A DNA stretch of 44,826 nucleotides from a virus (lineage: Duplodnaviria; Heunggongvirae; Uroviricota; Caudoviricetes). The position numbers were made by a program, and so were the translations under genes. The notes below the pieces were generated by a model, which saw nothing but the letters and a program-made list of their open reading frames with translations, was not told the DNA's origin and ran no database searches. Location of the stretch: the IMG/VR virus record IMGVR_UViG_2718218398_000008. One strand, written 5' to 3'. Below, one piece after another: positions 92-6,235 of the stretch; the first letter of the stretch is position 1, and each line of letters opens with the position of its first letter.

Positions 92-385
92 TCACCCACG
101 ATTAACCAACAGCCAGACCAGCAGACACGCCACCACCGGCACAGCAAAATCCATCAGGCTTGCCACATCCCAAGCTCGCGGATCAAAACCGCCCCACCAC
201 GGCATATTCATTCGCTTGCCATGCCCGAACATTTCAATCCAGCGATATTCTGCCTGGGTATGTTCACGCGCAATGAAGAACGTACAACCGGCTATCGCTC
301 CGTAAGCCCAGTTTCCGGTAAAAAGACCAACCAGTATCTGCGCAGCCACAGCACAAAGTGCATGAAGTAAGGGGCTTATATCCAT
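92..385 (-). CDS. hypothetical small membrane protein (97 aa, 2-3 predicted hydrophobic helices), last gene of the tail fibre operon
   Basis: ORF track; hydrophobic stretches at residues ~5-23, ~27-38 and ~77-95; 12 bp downstream of preceding ORF on same strand; no family recognised. Confidence 0.4.
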   Translation of the reverse strand: MDISPLLHALCAVAAQILVGLFTGNWAYGAIAGCTFFIAREHTQAEYRWIEMFGHGKRMNMPWWGGFDPRAWDVASLMDFAVPVVACLLVWLLVNRG

Positions 386-397
386 TATTTCCTCCTT

Positions 398-676
398 TCA
401 GCTCCATTCCCGAAGCGGTGTTTCCAGCTCCACGACATAATCAGAGAATACAGAAACATCAAACAAGTCATCAAGAATGCGAATGTTGACAAAATAACCG
501 TCATTCCGGACACAGACAGGTTCTCCCTCTTCTGTTACCCCTGTTTCTGTGTAGGTGAAACCAATTTCATCGACTAACAGTTTATTCTGGAGGTCTTCAT
601 CCTCCTCCCAGTCAAGAGATGACAGGAAGGATTTAAACTCTCTGTTACCAGGAAATTTCAAAGTTAAATCTTTCAT
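398..676 (-). CDS. hypothetical strongly acidic protein (92 aa), start overlaps stop of upstream tail fibre gene
   Basis: ORF track; Asp/Glu-rich composition; start/stop overlap (673..676) with stf-like gene suggests translational coupling; sits where lambda tfa would be but does not resemble Tfa. Confidence 0.4.
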   Translation of the reverse strand: MKDLTLKFPGNREFKSFLSSLDWEEDEDLQNKLLVDEIGFTYTETGVTEEGEPVCVRNDGYFVNIRILDDLFDVSVFSDYVVELETPLREWS

Positions 677-2700
677 ACTGCCTCCTTGATTTGCCTGTCA
701 TTTAATTCTTTAAACCAGACTCTGAAATTTCTGATGTGTCCAAACAAATGACGCGTTCCTGCTGCGGTCTGCCCACCAAACCGGTACGATGTTGCTGTAA
801 CTCCAAATATTTTACCATTAAGGTTTGTTGTATAATTACCATTGCATATTGCATTTACTGATAAATCAGATTTAGCTCTCACACCCACAATGAACCTTTC
901 TCCATCTGAGGCAATTTGTGGCTGAACCATTCCTACGTTGGCGCTTATCTTTCCTGTTGCAACAAACCCCAGCGATAAATAATTATCATCAATACTGTGC
1001 CCTCCAACATCAAATATCCTTGGCGCAACATTGGGCGGTGTACTCCAGTTCCTGCTTACTTCGCACAATACCGTAAAAGGCCGTGTTGACAGGTTATTCT
1101 GCGATGGGATAGTAACTACATCACTTGCGCGTGTTGTTGGCATTGTAGTTACAATAAATGACGATGCCGTATTGCCCAGTTCAATTTGCGGCGTCGTCAT
1201 GGTTAATGTTGAGTCATCATAGAATGTCTCATTACTTATTTTATTTGTCATATAAAAAGCACAGTTAACGGTATCAATGTCCGTATTAGCTGTATAAGTG
1301 GCCTCATAGTAGGTCCACTCGCCCTGTTGTTCAGCTTTGGCTGTTATAAGGGATGTATTACCGCTTACTGTTGCGATCCGGGTATCCAGATCAAGATAAG
1401 AGTCAGCAGAGAAGGTATCTGTTCCACCAATAATAACTGAAACTCTTAACCTGCATCGTGCTTTAGCGCCTTTAACCCGGCACGAAAAAGTGAAACATTC
1501 ACCACTTGCCAGCGGGAATCTGTCTGCTGCAACCACACCATGCACAGTATAGCCACCTGTTGTTCCCACTATACTTTCCGTGGGTGTCACCGTGGCATAA
1601 TTGAACCCCTGTTTATCAGTGCCAAATGTTTTATTCAGTGCGGAATGAACAGTCCATGAGTCTGGTTTATTTGAGTTCCTCAGATAATTTGTCCTCTGTC
1701 CTTCAATCAATAAGCCATCGCGCTCAAATCGCGGTTCGTCAACTTCAGCAAGCTTGAGTTGGCCGGACTTATTAATATACGTTGCTGTTGAAGCACGTTT
1801 AAACTTAACAATCTTGTCGCCTGGCATTGTTATTTCATCGTCACCAATAACTATCTTTTTATAAGATGGCGAAAAACCCGTAATCATATCCAGTGAATCG
1901 TTAAACGGTATCCACACATCAGGCAGCGGCGGCACTATATTCGCACAGGGCTCTGCAGTCACTTCCGCTGCGGCTTCTGCGCGGTCTGCCGCCTTTTCAG
2001 CTCGTGTCGCTGCCGACAGAGCCTCATCCTTTTTCTGCCCGGCCTTTGTTGCGTCTGCTGCGGCCTCCCGCGCTTTTGTGGTGGCGACTCCGGCATTTTC
2101 AGCGGCTGACTCTGCATTACGGCGGGAAGCCTCTTCACTGTCTGCGGAGGCTTCTTCTGACGCACGGGCATTTGTCTCTGAACGTTCTGCCGCTGTTGCT
2201 GCGTTTTGTGCGGCTGTTTTTGAAGAAGCTGCCGCTTTCGCGCTGTTACCTGCATTCGTCTCTGATGTTTTCGCCGCGTTCCTGGACGATGCCGCTGCTG
2301 TTTCTGATTTCTTTGCTGCCGCTGCGCTCTGAGAGGCGGCTTCAGCGTTGCGTGCCGCCTCTTCCACCATCTTTTCAAAACGATACAGTGCCTCCGGACA
2401 AACATCATCTTCTGTTGCAGCGCCCAGAAAATCATTCAATGTCCCCGGCTTAGAATCCTCATACACGGTGATGGTCCCGGCATGTGAAGGCGGAAAACCT
2501 TCAACCAGCAGGGCGACGCTGTACTGGCCATACTCAACATCCATGCTGTAACGTCCGGCTTCATCCGGATTTTCTGAGGCCACCGTGTTCACCACAACTG
2601 TGGTGCTGTTACGTTTTGCTTTGAGCTGAATGGTGCAGTTCTGTATCGGTTTTCCTGCACCGTCTTTCAGCACACCTGAAATCTGTACTGCCATATTCAC
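673..2700 (-). CDS. stf: side tail fibre protein (Stf-like): lambda-type N-terminus, Ala/Ser-rich low-complexity shaft, non-lambda C-terminal domain
   Basis: N-terminus MAVQISGVLKDGAGKPIQNCTIQLKAKRNSTTVVVNTV... matches lambda Stf N-terminal domain; Ala/Ser/Glu-rich repeats; C-terminal ~400 aa beta-rich and unlike lambda. Confidence 0.75.
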   Translation of the reverse strand: MNMAVQISGVLKDGAGKPIQNCTIQLKAKRNSTTVVVNTVASENPDEAGRYSMDVEYGQYSVALLVEGFPPSHAGTITVYEDSKPGTLNDFLGAATEDDVCPEALYRFEKMVEEAARNAEAASQSAAAAKKSETAAASSRNAAKTSETNAGNSAKAAASSKTAAQNAATAAERSETNARASEEASADSEEASRRNAESAAENAGVATTKAREAAADATKAGQKKDEALSAATRAEKAADRAEAAAEVTAEPCANIVPPLPDVWIPFNDSLDMITGFSPSYKKIVIGDDEITMPGDKIVKFKRASTATYINKSGQLKLAEVDEPRFERDGLLIEGQRTNYLRNSNKPDSWTVHSALNKTFGTDKQGFNYATVTPTESIVGTTGGYTVHGVVAADRFPLASGECFTFSCRVKGAKARCRLRVSVIIGGTDTFSADSYLDLDTRIATVSGNTSLITAKAEQQGEWTYYEATYTANTDIDTVNCAFYMTNKISNETFYDDSTLTMTTPQIELGNTASSFIVTTMPTTRASDVVTIPSQNNLSTRPFTVLCEVSRNWSTPPNVAPRIFDVGGHSIDDNYLSLGFVATGKISANVGMVQPQIASDGERFIVGVRAKSDLSVNAICNGNYTTNLNGKIFGVTATSYRFGGQTAAGTRHLFGHIRNFRVWFKELNDRQIKEAV

Positions 2701-2752
2701 TCCACAAATAAAAAAGGCACCATTTCTGGTGCCCGAATTTGGGTTTTAAAAT

Positions 2753-5700
2753 TCAACTGATACTGATGCCGGCTGTTGATTTCTTCATCACGACAACAAG
2801 AAGGTCGCTGATACTGGTCGTTGGCGTCCAGTTATTTGCACCATATGAAGAAACATTGAAAGTCAGGGTGACATGGCCGTGTCCGGCAGGCATATCAATG
2901 ACTGATGAAAATACCCTGCTGACATCCGTCGCGGGTTGCTGAAAGATTTCCTGTCCGTTCTTCAGCACCTGCAGCTTACAGGTTGAATACCAGTATGACT
3001 GTTGGTTGTTGCTGTTGAAGTTTTCATGCTTACCACCGCGAAACAGAACGGGGGGGACGACTATCTGACGGTCAAAAGCCTGGTCATCGTACACAGTGAC
3101 CGTTATTGTACCGCTGGCATAACTGCCATTTCTCGGAAAGGCTTTTCCCACCGTTTTGACAATATCACCTTCAATCTGGTTAGCTGACAGTTTTCCCAGA
3201 ATCCGACAGTTCTGGTTAATCGTGACATTATTGAGCGTCCCGGAGTTCGCATTCACGTTACCGCTGATATCCGCATTTCTCGCAGAAAGTCGACCATCAG
3301 GTGTCAGTGAAAACGTTGGGGGATTGCCACCGCTGGTAATGGTGGGAGCCGTCAGATATTTCAGGAACACTTCGTTCATGAATATCTGATCGCCCTGCCC
3401 AACAAACATCGGCTTTGTATTGCCATTCGCAGGATTAATCATCGCAATCCTGTCCGCCGCCAGCAGCACCTGACTCTGCATACCGTCAGGGGTATTCTCA
3501 ATACCGGCACCAATACCCGCGATATAAAGGCGTCCGTCCTGCATCTGCTGCAGCTTCACAGCCCACATGCTGTTCAGGTTATTATTTGTATCAACCTGAA
3601 CCTTCTGTATCTGCTGGATCGCTGCACTCTGGTCTTCCAGTTTCTTATTGACGGTCTGCGTGATTTCATTGCTGACATCCGTAATGGACGTCCTGATTTC
3701 AGCCAGGTCAGGCGCAAGCTGACCGTTATCAATCTGCGTCCACAACTCCTGAGCCAGATGGGTTTTCCCTATCTCTCCTTTGAAAAAATCCAGATAGCCG
3801 GATGCATCATCACTCGGCTGGCCAACAGCCTCCACAAATGCCGATTTGCCAACGGTGTTCACACTGCGAATGTAAAAATAATAATCATGGCCCGGTTTGA
3901 TATTGATACTGGCGGCTATCCAGTACAGCGCCGTACCAAGATAACGCGCGCTGGCTTCAACCTGCCTGATATCCGCAATCCGCTTTTCCGAGAACCAGAA
4001 CTCAAACTGTACCGTCGGATCATAAACGGCAAGATGCGGCGTTGCGGTTATCTGAAAATAGCCCGGCGTCAGCTCAATCCGCGATGGCGCTGCCGGTGCG
4101 GCAATCCGGAACGATACCGACGCCGGATCCCCCTGCTGCCCCCACGCATTTACCGCCCGGACTGTCAGCCTGTAGTTCCCCAGCGCCAGTTGCCTGAAGC
4201 GGTATGTGGTTTCCGTCGTCCTGGCCGTGCTGACCAGCCGCTCACTGCCGTCATCCGCTGCCACGGTCAGGCGAAGCATAAAGCTCACCCCCTTCACCAC
4301 CTTCGGTGTGTCCCATCGCGCCAGCACCTGATATTCCCCGCTGTCTGCGGTGACTTCTGCGGTCAGGTGCTGCACCGCGGGCGGCGTGACACCATTCACC
4401 GTGCCACTCTGTTCGCCGTCAAAGTGCGCCCCGTTATCCACGATGGTCTCTTTTTCCGGCACATGCTGCACGGCGGTGATGGCATACGTGCCGTCGTCGT
4501 TTTCACGGATACTCACGCAGCGGAACAGTCGCTGGCGCAGCGTCGGCAGCTTCAGCCCCCATACGCTGTATTCAGCAACACCGTCAGGAACACGGCTCAC
4601 TTTCACCTTCACGCCGTCGGTGACGGACTGAACCTCCACGCTGACCGGATTGCCACTTCCGTCAACCAGGCTTATCAGCGTGGTACCGGAGGATGGCAGC
4701 GTGATTTCACGGTCGAGCGTCAGCGTCCGGGTCTGGCTGTTCACCGCCAGCACACGACCACCGGTGCTGATACCGGCATAGTCATCATCGCAGATTTCAA
4801 TGACATCCCCCGGTACATGGCGAAGCCCTTCAGCACCCACGCTGAAGTCCACGGTCTGCGTTTCCAGCAGCTCCGTTTTAATCAGCCACAGCCCGGCGCG
4901 GTGTGCCTGCCCCCGGCTGGTACAGCCAAAGGCATCCATCTTCGTGACGTTACGGCCGTAACGGGCAATGGCCTGCGTATCCTCCACGAGCTCTGTCGCC
5001 GTCTCCCAGCCGTTATCCGGGTCAATCCAGTTCACCTCAACGGCATTATGGCGGTCCTTCAGGGCGCTGAAGCTGTAGCGGAACGGCGCGCCATCATCCG
5101 GCATCACCACATTACTGCGGTTATAGGTCCACACCTTATCTGATGGTCGGTCCTGCACGAACGTCAGCGTCTGCCCGTTCCATACCGGCATACAGCGCAT
5201 CGCCGAGCAGAAATCACTGAGCACATCCCACGCCTTGCGCTGTGTGGTCAGGTACGCATTACAGGTAATGCGCGGCTCCGTGCCGCCAAAGCCGTCCGGC
5301 ACCGACTGGTCGCAGTACTGGCCGATGACATACAGCGCCCATTTATCCACATCCGCCGCACCAAGACGTTTCCCCATGCCGTAGCGCGGATGGGTCAGCA
5401 TATCCCACAGACACCAGGCCATGTTGTTGCTGTATGCCGGTTTTAACGTTCCGTCCCAGATACCGCTGTATTGCCGCGTCTGCGGGTTATAGTTCGACGG
5501 CACCTGCAGAATGCGCCCGCGAAGATGATAATTACGGCTCACCTGCTGGCTGCCGAACTGCTCCGAGTCCACCTGCACGCCAACCAGTGCCGTGTTCGGG
5601 TAGCACTGTTTCACATCGATGATTTCGGTGTATGACGACCAGAGCGTTTTGTTCAGCAGCTGGTCTGTGGTGCTGTCCGGCGTCATCCTGCGCATCCGGA

Positions 5701-6235
5701 TATTAAACGGGCGCGGCGGCAGGTTATCCACCACCACCGAGGCCAGATACTGCGAGGTGGTTTTGCCCTTAATGGTGATGTCTTTTTCCGTCACCCAGCC
5801 ACCGTTACGCTGTATCTGAACCAGCAGGCGAACTTCCGACGGATTCCTGTCTCCCTTTGAGGTGGTTTCCACCAGTGCCTGTACACCGAAGGTAAAGCGC
5901 AGACGGTCGATGTTTGCCGACGTGATGGTCCGGGTGATCGGCGTGTCATATTTCACTTCCGTACCCAGCACCGTCTCGGAGCCGGAGGATTCAAATCCCT
6001 CCGGCGGTGACTGCTCCTGCTCACCGGCCCGGAACACCACCGTGACGCCGGATATATTGGTATTCCCCTCACTGTCCAGCACCGGCGTACTGTTCAGCAG
6101 CACGCTTTTTAATCCATCCACCGGACCTTCAACCGGCCCTTCGCTGATGGCATCGATCACACTCAGCAGCTGCGTGGACTTCAGGTTGTCCTTCGCTTCG
6201 CGCGGGGTATGCCCCTTACTGCTGCCTTTACCCAT
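2753..6235 (-). CDS. J: tail tip / host specificity protein J (1160 aa), C-terminal receptor-binding region diverged from lambda
   Basis: Length and position after I; conserved lambda J motifs through most of the protein; last ~150 aa differ from the lambda LamB-binding domain. Confidence 0.95.

Follow-up and report, generated by a model that had tools for sequence, protein, structure and literature searches.

Several described phages encode small envelope proteins beside their tail or receptor-binding genes, among them HK97 gp15, T5 Llp, Cor of phi80 and N15, the products of the Z/fun slot of P2 and the polymerase inhibitors of epsilon15 and D3. Small genes directly after a fibre gene can also encode separate fibre chaperones, and in the case of the "transient chaperone caps" of Alteromonas phages A5 and V22 the fibre and its partner move together between unrelated phage families (PMC10579305). 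Here we analyse a locus of three tightly packed genes on the minus strand (92-2700) of the IMG/VR virus record IMGVR_UViG_2718218398_000008, a Caudoviricetes sequence of 44,826 nucleotides, the whole of which is hereafter called the window. The genes lie 3' of J (2753-6235) and encode a side tail fibre, an acidic protein of 92 amino acids (aa) and a 97-aa protein with predicted membrane helices. Our best explanation, to which we give a probability of roughly 0.55, is that the fibre is a chimera ending in a lectin-type module, that the 92-aa protein is a dedicated partner of this module and that the 97-aa gene is a separate item of cargo.

The closest described relatives are lambdoid phages. 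Bases 1-2800 of the window are 100% identical to Escherichia phage 1H12 and to a series of "Lambda_ev" infant-gut phages, and 94% identical to phage 21 across two thirds of their length. The phage 21 record (OL657228) already annotates the three genes (CPT_21_22/23/24) as "side tail fiber", "hypothetical protein" and "putative membrane protein". An earlier reading of the same DNA from its letters alone (the preliminary description) placed neither small protein in a recognised family; this stands for Pfam, NCBIfam, PADLOC and the PDB, where no significant relative was found, but not for PHROGs, which hold both proteins in families of unknown function (phrog_1361 for the 92-aa and phrog_1443 for the 97-aa protein). 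Literature searches (phage 21 side tail fibre, fibre-adjacent exclusion genes, RefSeq accessions) returned no paper on either small protein, and the BASEL papers treat the fibre, not the 92-aa gene. What is new here is the recognition of two linkage patterns among sequences that were already deposited, as unnamed PHROGs and in the phage 21 record.

Layout and occurrence of the locus

The preliminary description had the gene positions right, and also the overlap between the fibre stop and the 92-aa start and the short gap that follows. The ATG of the 92-aa gene (676-674) overlaps the fibre TGA (675-673) as ATGA, and 12 bp separate the 92-aa stop from the 97-aa gene. The fibre itself likely starts at the ATG at 2694 (MAVQISG..., 673 aa), as annotated in PhiR47_2, rather than at the GTG of the mechanical open reading frame (ORF). 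Both small genes are real genes and not chance ORFs, because each has hundreds of homologues, the ratio of nonsynonymous to synonymous substitution rates (dN/dS) lies between 0.2 and 0.4 in the 92-aa gene and between 0.16 and 0.27 in the 97-aa gene, and the AlphaFold models reach a mean predicted local distance difference test score (pLDDT) of 92.8 and 95.0, respectively.

Two lambda genes reported as missing are indeed absent. Only a terminator-like hairpin (2734-2715) occupies the 52 bp that separate the end of J (2753) from the fibre gene, hence there is no lom, and the 92-aa protein in the tfa position gives no match to Caudo_TAP at E<=1 (Pfam). With a terminator-like hairpin 5' of the fibre gene, fibre expression would therefore depend on Q-mediated read-through.

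The two small genes, or the 97-aa gene alone, were found in 1902 of 5426 complete E. coli genomes (~35%), with up to seven matching sites per genome. Their annotation in these genomes is invariably "hypothetical protein", and a cluster look-up likewise returned only this name. The genomic contexts described below were surveyed in 52 species-representative loci, about 15 inspected phage records and 80 IMG/VR loci.

A side tail fibre with a lectin-type module

The preliminary description gave the fibre a lambda-type N-terminus and a different C-terminal domain, which agrees with our domain searches. At the N-terminus, residues 3-133 match PF08400 (E=2.8e-67, 225 bits where the cut-off is 26.6; Pfam) and residues 3-96 match the lambda tail fibre (Stf) chain 9e7m_Ta (E=1.6e-49; PDB), so that by its anchor the protein belongs with lambda-type Stf. 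A lambda-like C-terminal receptor-binding region was not detected in the Pfam search, where the C-terminal half gives weak, sub-threshold matches to CBM_4_9, LamG_3 and Omp85_2, and the best PHROG for the last ~425 aa is phrog_1419.

Within this foreign module, residues 331-525 score 65.7 bits against NF048003 GTA_spike_fiber (curated cut-off 36; NCBIfam) and thus fall within that family. Furthermore, a profile of eight fibre homologues matches Rcc01080, a fibre of the gene transfer agent RcGTA (PDB 6tb9_F3, E=8.2e-17), and PGAP names the E. coli copies "phage head spike fiber domain-containing protein". The end of the fibre resembles PF13385 Laminin_G_3 over model positions 4-151 of 151 (E=6.8e-4); its score of 20.3 bits is below the gathering score of 27.6, and this match recurs in all homologous fibres compared (8/8).

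The C-terminal module has a guanine-cytosine (GC) content of 0.43, against 0.52-0.59 for the N-terminal half, and was present in 227 phage records, including lambdoids, Drexlerviridae, T5-like Tequintavirus, Queuovirinae, Dhillonvirus and rV5-like myoviruses. Its proximal part is 72-91% identical across distant siphoviruses and 49% identical in the rV5-like CarlMeissner. Judged from sequence, the fibre is a chimera in which a lambda-type anchor and an Ala-rich shaft are joined to a horizontally mobile, lectin-type module of ~425 aa.

Described relatives of the module point to its ligand. The head-spike fibre of RcGTA attaches reversibly to capsular polysaccharide and has a single chain per spike (PMC7296036), the lateral fibres of the BASEL phages that carry the module have been assigned to O-antigen recognition (PMC8594841), and the C-terminus of Gp22 of phage IrisVonRoten has been described as a protruding "galectin-like domain", a possible extra receptor-binding domain (PMC11990801). 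Because of the homology to the capsule-binding RcGTA fibre, and because of the role of the module in T5-like and T1-like lateral fibres, its most likely primary receptor is a surface polysaccharide, either O-antigen or capsule.

A disrupted copy of the locus is seen in phage 4A7 (L005 616-5794), where an inserted insertion sequence (IS) with three transposase ORFs truncates the fibre gene. The 92-aa and 97-aa genes are intact in this phage, and its 97-aa protein is 100% identical to that of the window.

An acidic protein that follows the fibre module

The 92-aa protein is very acidic, as first noted (isoelectric point 4.05, 22 D+E against 8 K+R), and its AlphaFold model is a confident alpha/beta fold with no solved relative in the PDB. 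A first search returned relatives from Escherichia and Shigella only, tblastn against phage genomes gave 159 records, mostly virulent siphoviruses, and a profile search gave 315 clusters, all unnamed.

The position of these homologues is highly consistent. In every lineage inspected (8/8), virulent ones included, a homologue lies directly 3' of a fibre with the same module and its start overlaps the fibre stop; these lineages include phage 21, ev243, KarlJaspers, ityhuna, VogelGryff, IrisVonRoten and CarlMeissner, the last with a 110-aa version. The same overlap was seen in 75 of the 78 IMG/VR prophage loci where the 92-aa gene was located, the fibre gene being unrecovered in the other three. 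The GC content of the gene (0.42) is close to that of the fibre module (0.43), and dN/dS of 0.22-0.41 indicates purifying selection, even in lambdoid prophages that have no second fibre.

A place directly downstream of the fibre, with which it is co-inherited, is what the 92-aa gene has in common with genes of the Tfa type, but the protein has no similarity to Tfa-type proteins in sequence or fold. Nor does it change with the receptor-binding surface. Comparison of phage 21 with the window gives 32% identity for the variable fibre core and 93.5% for the 92-aa protein, and for KarlJaspers and the window the corresponding values are 69% and 49%. Spearman coefficients for the 92-aa protein were 0.37 with the receptor-binding core against 0.78 with the conserved proximal segment, both confounded by shared ancestry. 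As far as these alignments go, changes in the 92-aa protein track the conserved module frame and the lineage of the phage rather than the surface that binds the receptor. A chaperone matched to fibre specificity, in the manner of gp38 or Tfa, was rejected given this lack of co-variation.

From its linkage, the 92-aa protein is probably tied to the fibre module in one way or another, as a factor acting on the fibre or as an adaptor or cap in the virion. The narrower proposal, in which the protein is an accessory or assembly factor dedicated to the scaffold of the lectin heads, is the one we favour, at odds slightly short of even. The protein would be an assembly or folding factor, or else a small bound subunit or cap, for this conserved scaffold, and would stand in for Tfa although unrelated to it.

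A second fibre of the S74 (intramolecular-chaperone) type comes after the 92-aa homologue in IrisVonRoten (574 aa), VogelGryff (388 aa) and KarlJaspers (225 aa), and is also the next gene after the 92-aa-type gene in the E. coli prophages L148, L149 and L017 (234-346 aa). Because an S74 fibre is the next gene in so many phages, a structural adaptor or cap in the virion is a serious rival to a folding role; under this alternative the second fibre was lost in the phage studied here and its adaptor remained. The second fibre of IrisVonRoten is predicted in the BASEL work to attach to the proximal fibre (PMC11990801), the IrisVonRoten copy of the 92-aa protein is annotated "tail fiber protein", and an adaptor would be expected to track the conserved fibre frame, as the 92-aa protein does. 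However, purifying selection keeps the gene in many lambdoid prophages that have no second fibre, and the published models of the complex are described without the 92-aa protein; no virion proteomics was found in our searches. We regard the adaptor as somewhat unlikely.

In the E. coli chromosomal loci L148 (4001-7357) and L149 (3992-7662), the short S74-type fibre (234 or 346 aa) lies between the 92-aa-type gene and a 97-aa gene. The gene order is that of IrisVonRoten Gp22-Gp23-Gp24 with the membrane gene appended at the end.

A conserved membrane protein behind diverse receptor-binding genes

For the 97-aa protein two or three hydrophobic helices had been proposed, and the AlphaFold model has three, arranged as a bundle (residues 4-23, 26-53 and 74-96). 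The protein is hydrophobic (grand average of hydropathy, GRAVY, +0.53), and the annotators of phage 21 predicted transmembrane domains in it. By these predicted helices it has the membrane localisation of an exclusion protein, yet it shows no homology to any described exclusion or defence family, and a PDB search with the model returned generic helical matches only. There is no lipobox, the residue at -1 to Cys11 being Leu and Cys11 itself unconserved, and a lipoprotein of the Cor/Llp kind was rejected on this ground.

A first search for relatives returned over 577 clusters, in which the proteins from Comamonas, Aeromonas, Salmonella, Leclercia and Citrobacter are about 60% identical, and an exhaustive profile search gave 447 clusters at 50% identity. 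The best 150 of these 447 clusters were all stand-alone proteins of 63-146 aa, none fused to a larger protein. An alignment of the family contains 22 invariant columns, including the polar residues H8, Q16 and D79 within helices and the block R40-E41...Q44-A45-E46-Y47-R48-W49...G56.R58..M61-P62..G65-G66-F67....W72, and an almost invariant motif reads IAREHTQAEYRWI...GKR.NMPWWGGFD.R.W.

The 97-aa gene has a GC content of 0.53, against 0.42-0.43 for the 92-aa gene and the fibre module, and this distinct composition, together with its independent presence elsewhere, is what is expected of a moron. A promoter and terminator of its own were not seen; a simple consensus scan, which is weak evidence, found neither a sigma-70-like promoter nor a terminator flanking 92-385, and none of the latter between sitD, the neighbouring gene in related phages, and the 97-aa gene.

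Homologues of the 97-aa protein are encoded behind at least six unrelated kinds of receptor-binding gene, in siphoviruses, myoviruses and podoviruses. In Lederbergvirus JEP4 the homologue directly follows a P22-like tailspike gene with a 4-bp overlap, and in the P2-like Halomonas phage phiHAP-1 it lies after the tail-fibre assembly gene (P2-type Tfa) and before the sheath gene. It comes after a 939-aa S74 fibre in a Leclercia prophage and after short S74 fibres in Escherichia, and is also found behind a tailspike-N protein in Leclercia and behind a 2520-aa J-like protein and a 72-aa ORF in Comamonas testosteroni. Comamonas kerstersii, Pantoea and Chelativorans have it behind fibres of phrog_5939/1419; of 27 genes found upstream of, and next to, the membrane gene in species-representative genomes, five encode such fibres. 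In Comamonas nitrativorans (L044 3785-5691) and Pigmentiphaga (L047 3824-5691) the homologue is flanked by a 370-383-aa Mtd-like protein (phrog_2889) and the Avd gene of a diversity-generating retroelement (DGR), and therefore sits right after a receptor-binding gene that is probably diversified by the DGR.

Other copies stand alone in chromosomes, beside housekeeping genes. In Aeromonas rivipollensis (L004 6001-6309) the homologue is located downstream of a pirin gene and has no phage genes nearby, and a Pirin match was obtained for two of 27 scanned upstream neighbours, from other Aeromonas species. Vertical inheritance in Aeromonas is suggested and not established, because a pirin neighbour was confirmed with Pfam in only one or two loci among A. 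aquatica, A. media and A. taiwanensis (L020, L022, L026). Further homologues adjoin ligA in sphingomonad-like genomes and a GNAT or secreted-protein gene in Leclercia and Silvania.

Among phage records, full-length copies were found in lambdoid, P22-like, Halomonas and Aeromonas phages. The inspected virulent phages, including those that share the fibre and the 92-aa gene, contained no full-length copy. Phage HC6 (L150 2965-3120) has an unannotated, frameshifted remnant (...IPWWGGFDWRAWDLPSLLD; ...ANIPWWGGFDWRAWDLPSLLD) just 3' of an 859-aa tailspike-N/S74 protein and adjoining ssb and recombinase genes, and the same partial match was obtained with tblastn in ST1UNAM, PBM-2 and PBM-3, which apparently hold remnants too. 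The gene appears to be dispensable for a virulent phage.

These varied contexts indicate that the 97-aa family travels with receptor-binding cassettes and has been retained by temperate phages and some chromosomes. The preliminary description had treated the two small genes as one coupled pair replacing tfa, a view that the survey leads us to revise, as the 92-aa gene is bound to the fibre module and the 97-aa gene belongs to an independent family with other contexts and another GC content. The consistent place behind receptor-binding genes of all tail types suggests that the 97-aa protein takes part in a general step of the interaction between phage and envelope.

A similar gene order in Comamonas and Pantoea

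In Comamonas (L023, L036, L043) and Pantoea (L032), an ORF of 95-188 aa lies between a phrog_5939 fibre and the membrane gene, with stop/start overlaps on both sides. The N-terminal ~95 residues of its product repeat the pattern of the 92-aa protein (M.FL.F...A..AF......VD.IG......G....PG.H.NL......P.RVF). The Comamonas and Pantoea proteins were missed by a local hidden Markov model (HMM) built from the 92-aa family, and a profile-profile comparison aligned 58 columns in register with a weak score (E=4.7e-4, probability 33%). Because of the missed detection and the weak score, homology is probable and unproven; the small protein in this slot is probably a distant version of the 92-aa protein. 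The C-terminal extensions fused to it gave no Pfam match, and hence no clue from fusion. If the homology is true, the order of fibre module, small alpha/beta protein and membrane protein is conserved from gamma- to betaproteobacteria, which sustains the idea of a functional trio.

Under this idea the three genes would form one functional system in which the membrane protein serves the glycan-binding fibre, for example by keeping glycan intermediates or debris from trapping new fibres or progeny, or by excluding phages with the same receptor. In 70 of 78 E. coli prophage loci the three genes adjoin one another and are translationally coupled, distant versions of the trio are those of Comamonas and Pantoea just described, and in Chelativorans (L042) fibre and membrane gene form a pair with a 4-bp overlap; the share of phrog_1419/5939 fibres among upstream neighbours of the membrane gene (5/27) is a further point in its favour. 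However, the membrane gene also stands behind unrelated receptor-binding proteins and alone in chromosomes with conserved synteny, the virulent phages with the same fibre and 92-aa gene manage without it, and its GC content differs from that of the fibre module. We consider a trio of this kind to be quite unlikely. A lysis function for the 97-aa protein, as a class-I-holin-like or holin-modulating protein made late, is highly improbable despite its small size, three predicted helices, strong Shine-Dalgarno sequence and co-transcription with late genes, given that the lysis genes of the window are ~23 kb away (near 23.6-24.5 kb, beside Q), that the protein has no charged C-terminal tail (it ends in "NRG") and no match to a PHROG lysis family, and that its conservation across genera is extreme, unlike that of holins, and its stand-alone chromosomal copies lie beside housekeeping genes; class I holin membership was rejected on account of distance, tail and conservation.

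In Comamonas L023 (5189-6129) and Pantoea L032 (5362-6257), the genes after the 97-aa homologue may, to judge from their translations, encode a holin-type membrane protein and an endolysin, which speaks for the lysis alternative. If so, the receptor-binding module of these prophages would be followed directly by the lysis cassette.

Proposed roles of the two small proteins

The biochemical functions considered here are those we infer from the anatomy, homologies, linkage patterns and selection described above. As in the preliminary description, fibre maturation is still the foremost candidate for the 92-aa protein, and an exclusion or envelope function for the 97-aa protein. Clear homology of the former to a Tfa-type chaperone, and of the latter to a housekeeping membrane protein, would have spoken against that description and was looked for; neither was found, the 92-aa protein being unlike Tfa and the 97-aa protein having no match among known housekeeping proteins, though the family of the latter has chromosomal members that may be vertically inherited.

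In the explanation we prefer, a lectin-type fibre chimera with a dedicated 92-aa partner and a separate 97-aa cargo gene, the 97-aa protein would be a three-helix inner-membrane protein whose gene closes the receptor-binding modules of temperate phages with any of the three tail types. It would act on a conserved envelope component and not on the fibre, to the benefit of the lysogen or the late-infected cell. Candidate actions are a block of superinfection at the inner membrane, and altered glycan export or interference with a glycan or lipid-carrier pathway; the position behind many glycan-binding proteins and the intramembrane polar residues are compatible with exclusion and with glycan or lipid-carrier interference alike. 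Its family distribution and predicted helices make temperate-phage cargo acting on the envelope the most likely role, possibly in exclusion.

Several observations weigh against this explanation. The 92-aa protein resembles no known chaperone, its lack of co-variation with the receptor-binding core sets it apart from chaperones of the gp38/Tfa type, and the S74-type second fibre found after it in many phages fits an adaptor equally well. For the 97-aa gene, the tight coupling to a late operon and the lack of a recognisable promoter are atypical of a moron expressed in the lysogen, PADLOC gave no match to its product, and the conservation of the protein is unusually high, unlike that of the known, fast-evolving exclusion proteins. 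The recurrence of fibre, small protein and membrane protein in Escherichia, Pantoea and Comamonas also leaves room for a functional link to the fibre type.

A bolder proposal, which we hold to be unlikely, combines the two small proteins in a portable three-part host-recognition cassette extending from Escherichia to Comamonas, with the 97-aa protein as a pan-proteobacterial inner-membrane factor linked to receptor-binding modules and the 92-aa protein as a new class of fibre chaperone or cap. The 97-aa protein could then bind a universal envelope component and so block genome entry, or could stop the export of surface glycans while receptor-binding proteins are synthesised, and the 92-aa protein would complete or mask the lectin-type fibre heads.

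These roles matter beyond the window. The lectin-type module and its 92-aa partner are common to lambdoid prophages and several families of virulent coliphages, including phages used in therapy and those of the BASEL collection, and if the 92-aa protein is needed for a working fibre it must move with the module in host-range engineering. It would then also represent a type of chaperone or adaptor unrelated to Tfa, gp38 and the intramolecular S74 domains. The 97-aa protein is encoded by one of the commonest uncharacterised genes of E. coli prophages, and relatives with strong conservation occur in Aeromonas, Comamonas, Pantoea, Leclercia and alphaproteobacteria.

Coordinates and neighbouring genes

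The features of the locus are listed in Table 1.

Table 1. Features of the side tail fibre locus, with positions in the window.
Feature	Position	Strand	Basis
Side tail fibre gene, 673 aa from ATG 2694 (mechanical ORF 673-2700 starts at GTG 2700)	673..2694	-	ORF; PhiR47_2 annotation starts at ATG; phrog_1419 E=2e-294; 100% identical to 1H12 and Lambda_ev phages
Lambda-Stf-type N-terminal anchor domain, about aa 1-131	2302..2694	-	PF08400 phage_tail_N, 9e7m_Ta
Ala-rich (35% Ala) probable coiled-coil shaft, GC 0.59	1951..2394	-	Composition; shaft role inferred from repeat character
Conserved proximal part of mobile C-terminal module (PDVWIPFNDSL...EPRFERDGLLIEGQRTN)	1666..1950	-	Alignment
RcGTA head-spike-fibre-like beta-sandwich, variable, probable glycan-binding part	1126..1710	-	NF048003, 6tb9_F3, weak CBM_4_9
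LamG/concanavalin-A-like C-terminal domain, below Pfam threshold	685..1125	-	PF13385 Laminin_G_3
92-aa acidic alpha/beta protein gene (phrog_1361), putative partner of fibre C-terminal module	398..676	-	ORF, homologues, AlphaFold model, dN/dS
97-aa three-helix membrane protein gene (phrog_1443), in broad proteobacterial family	92..385	-	ORF, homologues, AlphaFold model, dN/dS
Shine-Dalgarno AAGGAGG of 92-aa gene, within fibre 3' end	681..687	-	Sequence
Shine-Dalgarno AAGGAGG of 97-aa gene	391..397	-	Sequence
Terminator-like hairpin GGGCACCAGAAATGGTGCC then T-run, between J and fibre gene (lambda lom slot)	2715..2734	-	Scan; phage 21 has annotated terminator at same place

On the other side of the locus, related phages have transporter genes. 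The window begins exactly after the stop of the convergent sitABCD Mn/Fe transporter operon, which is seen in phage 21, PhiR47_2 and 4A7, and sitABCD has been reported on 70% of infant-gut lambda phages (PMC6969025).

Further cargo is present in the early-right region of the window. Between the replication gene P (35825-36526) and the antiterminator gene Q (25152-25841), the minus strand encodes a large, adhesin-like inverse autotransporter of the intimin/invasin type (1421 aa, 31310-35575), with a match to PF11924 IAT_beta (E=6e-101) and Big_1/Invasin_D3 repeats. In the same region, 27690-30965 on the plus strand holds an IS66-family element, with a helix-turn-helix ORF (28549-28974) and a 537-aa transposase (29352-30965), and an adjoining alpha/beta-hydrolase/esterase ORF (27690-28478, BD-FAE).

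Comparison with known systems

The locus is similar to that of lambda Stf/Tfa (Ur-lambda) in its position after J, the homologous N-terminal anchor, the Ala-rich shaft and the small gene directly after the fibre. It differs however, in that the C-terminal ~425 aa of the fibre are a lectin-type module, the downstream protein has another fold and is not of the Caudo_TAP/Tfa kind, and lom is absent. Gene order is identical in phage 21 and in the 1H12/Lambda_ev phages, the whole locus being 100% identical in 1H12 and the 97-aa protein 100% identical in phage 21, whereas the phage 21 fibre has another variable core (the 32% identity given above) and in all records the small genes are named only as hypothetical or putative membrane proteins.

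The lateral fibre loci of T5-like phages (IrisVonRoten Gp22-Gp24), Drexlerviridae, Queuovirinae, Dhillonvirus and rV5-like phages share the fibre module (35-69% identity), the small protein (41-50% identity) and the overlapping stop and start, but their fibres have other N-terminal anchors, a second fibre of the S74 type often follows the small gene and the 97-aa gene is missing. A homologous beta-sandwich is found in RcGTA GhsB (Rcc01080, PDB 6tb9), where it binds capsular polysaccharide reversibly for the first attachment; that protein is a single chain on a pentameric base at the capsid vertices, in contrast to the end of a trimeric tail fibre here.

The Alteromonas caps, the Tfa proteins of Mu, P2 and lambda and T4 gp38 are likewise encoded by small genes directly after the fibre gene. 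The 92-aa protein, whose role as a chaperone is putative, has no relationship to them in sequence or fold and does not co-vary with the receptor-binding tip; it resembles these fibre partners in position, and departs from Tfa, gp38 and caps in every other feature compared. Among envelope proteins encoded next to tail genes (HK97 gp15, Cor, Llp), the 97-aa family differs in having neither homology to them nor a lipobox, in being far more conserved and in not being tied to one receptor or tail type. The Z/fun slot of P2 offers a direct parallel, as the 97-aa homologue of phiHAP-1 occupies this slot, between the fibre genes and the sheath gene.

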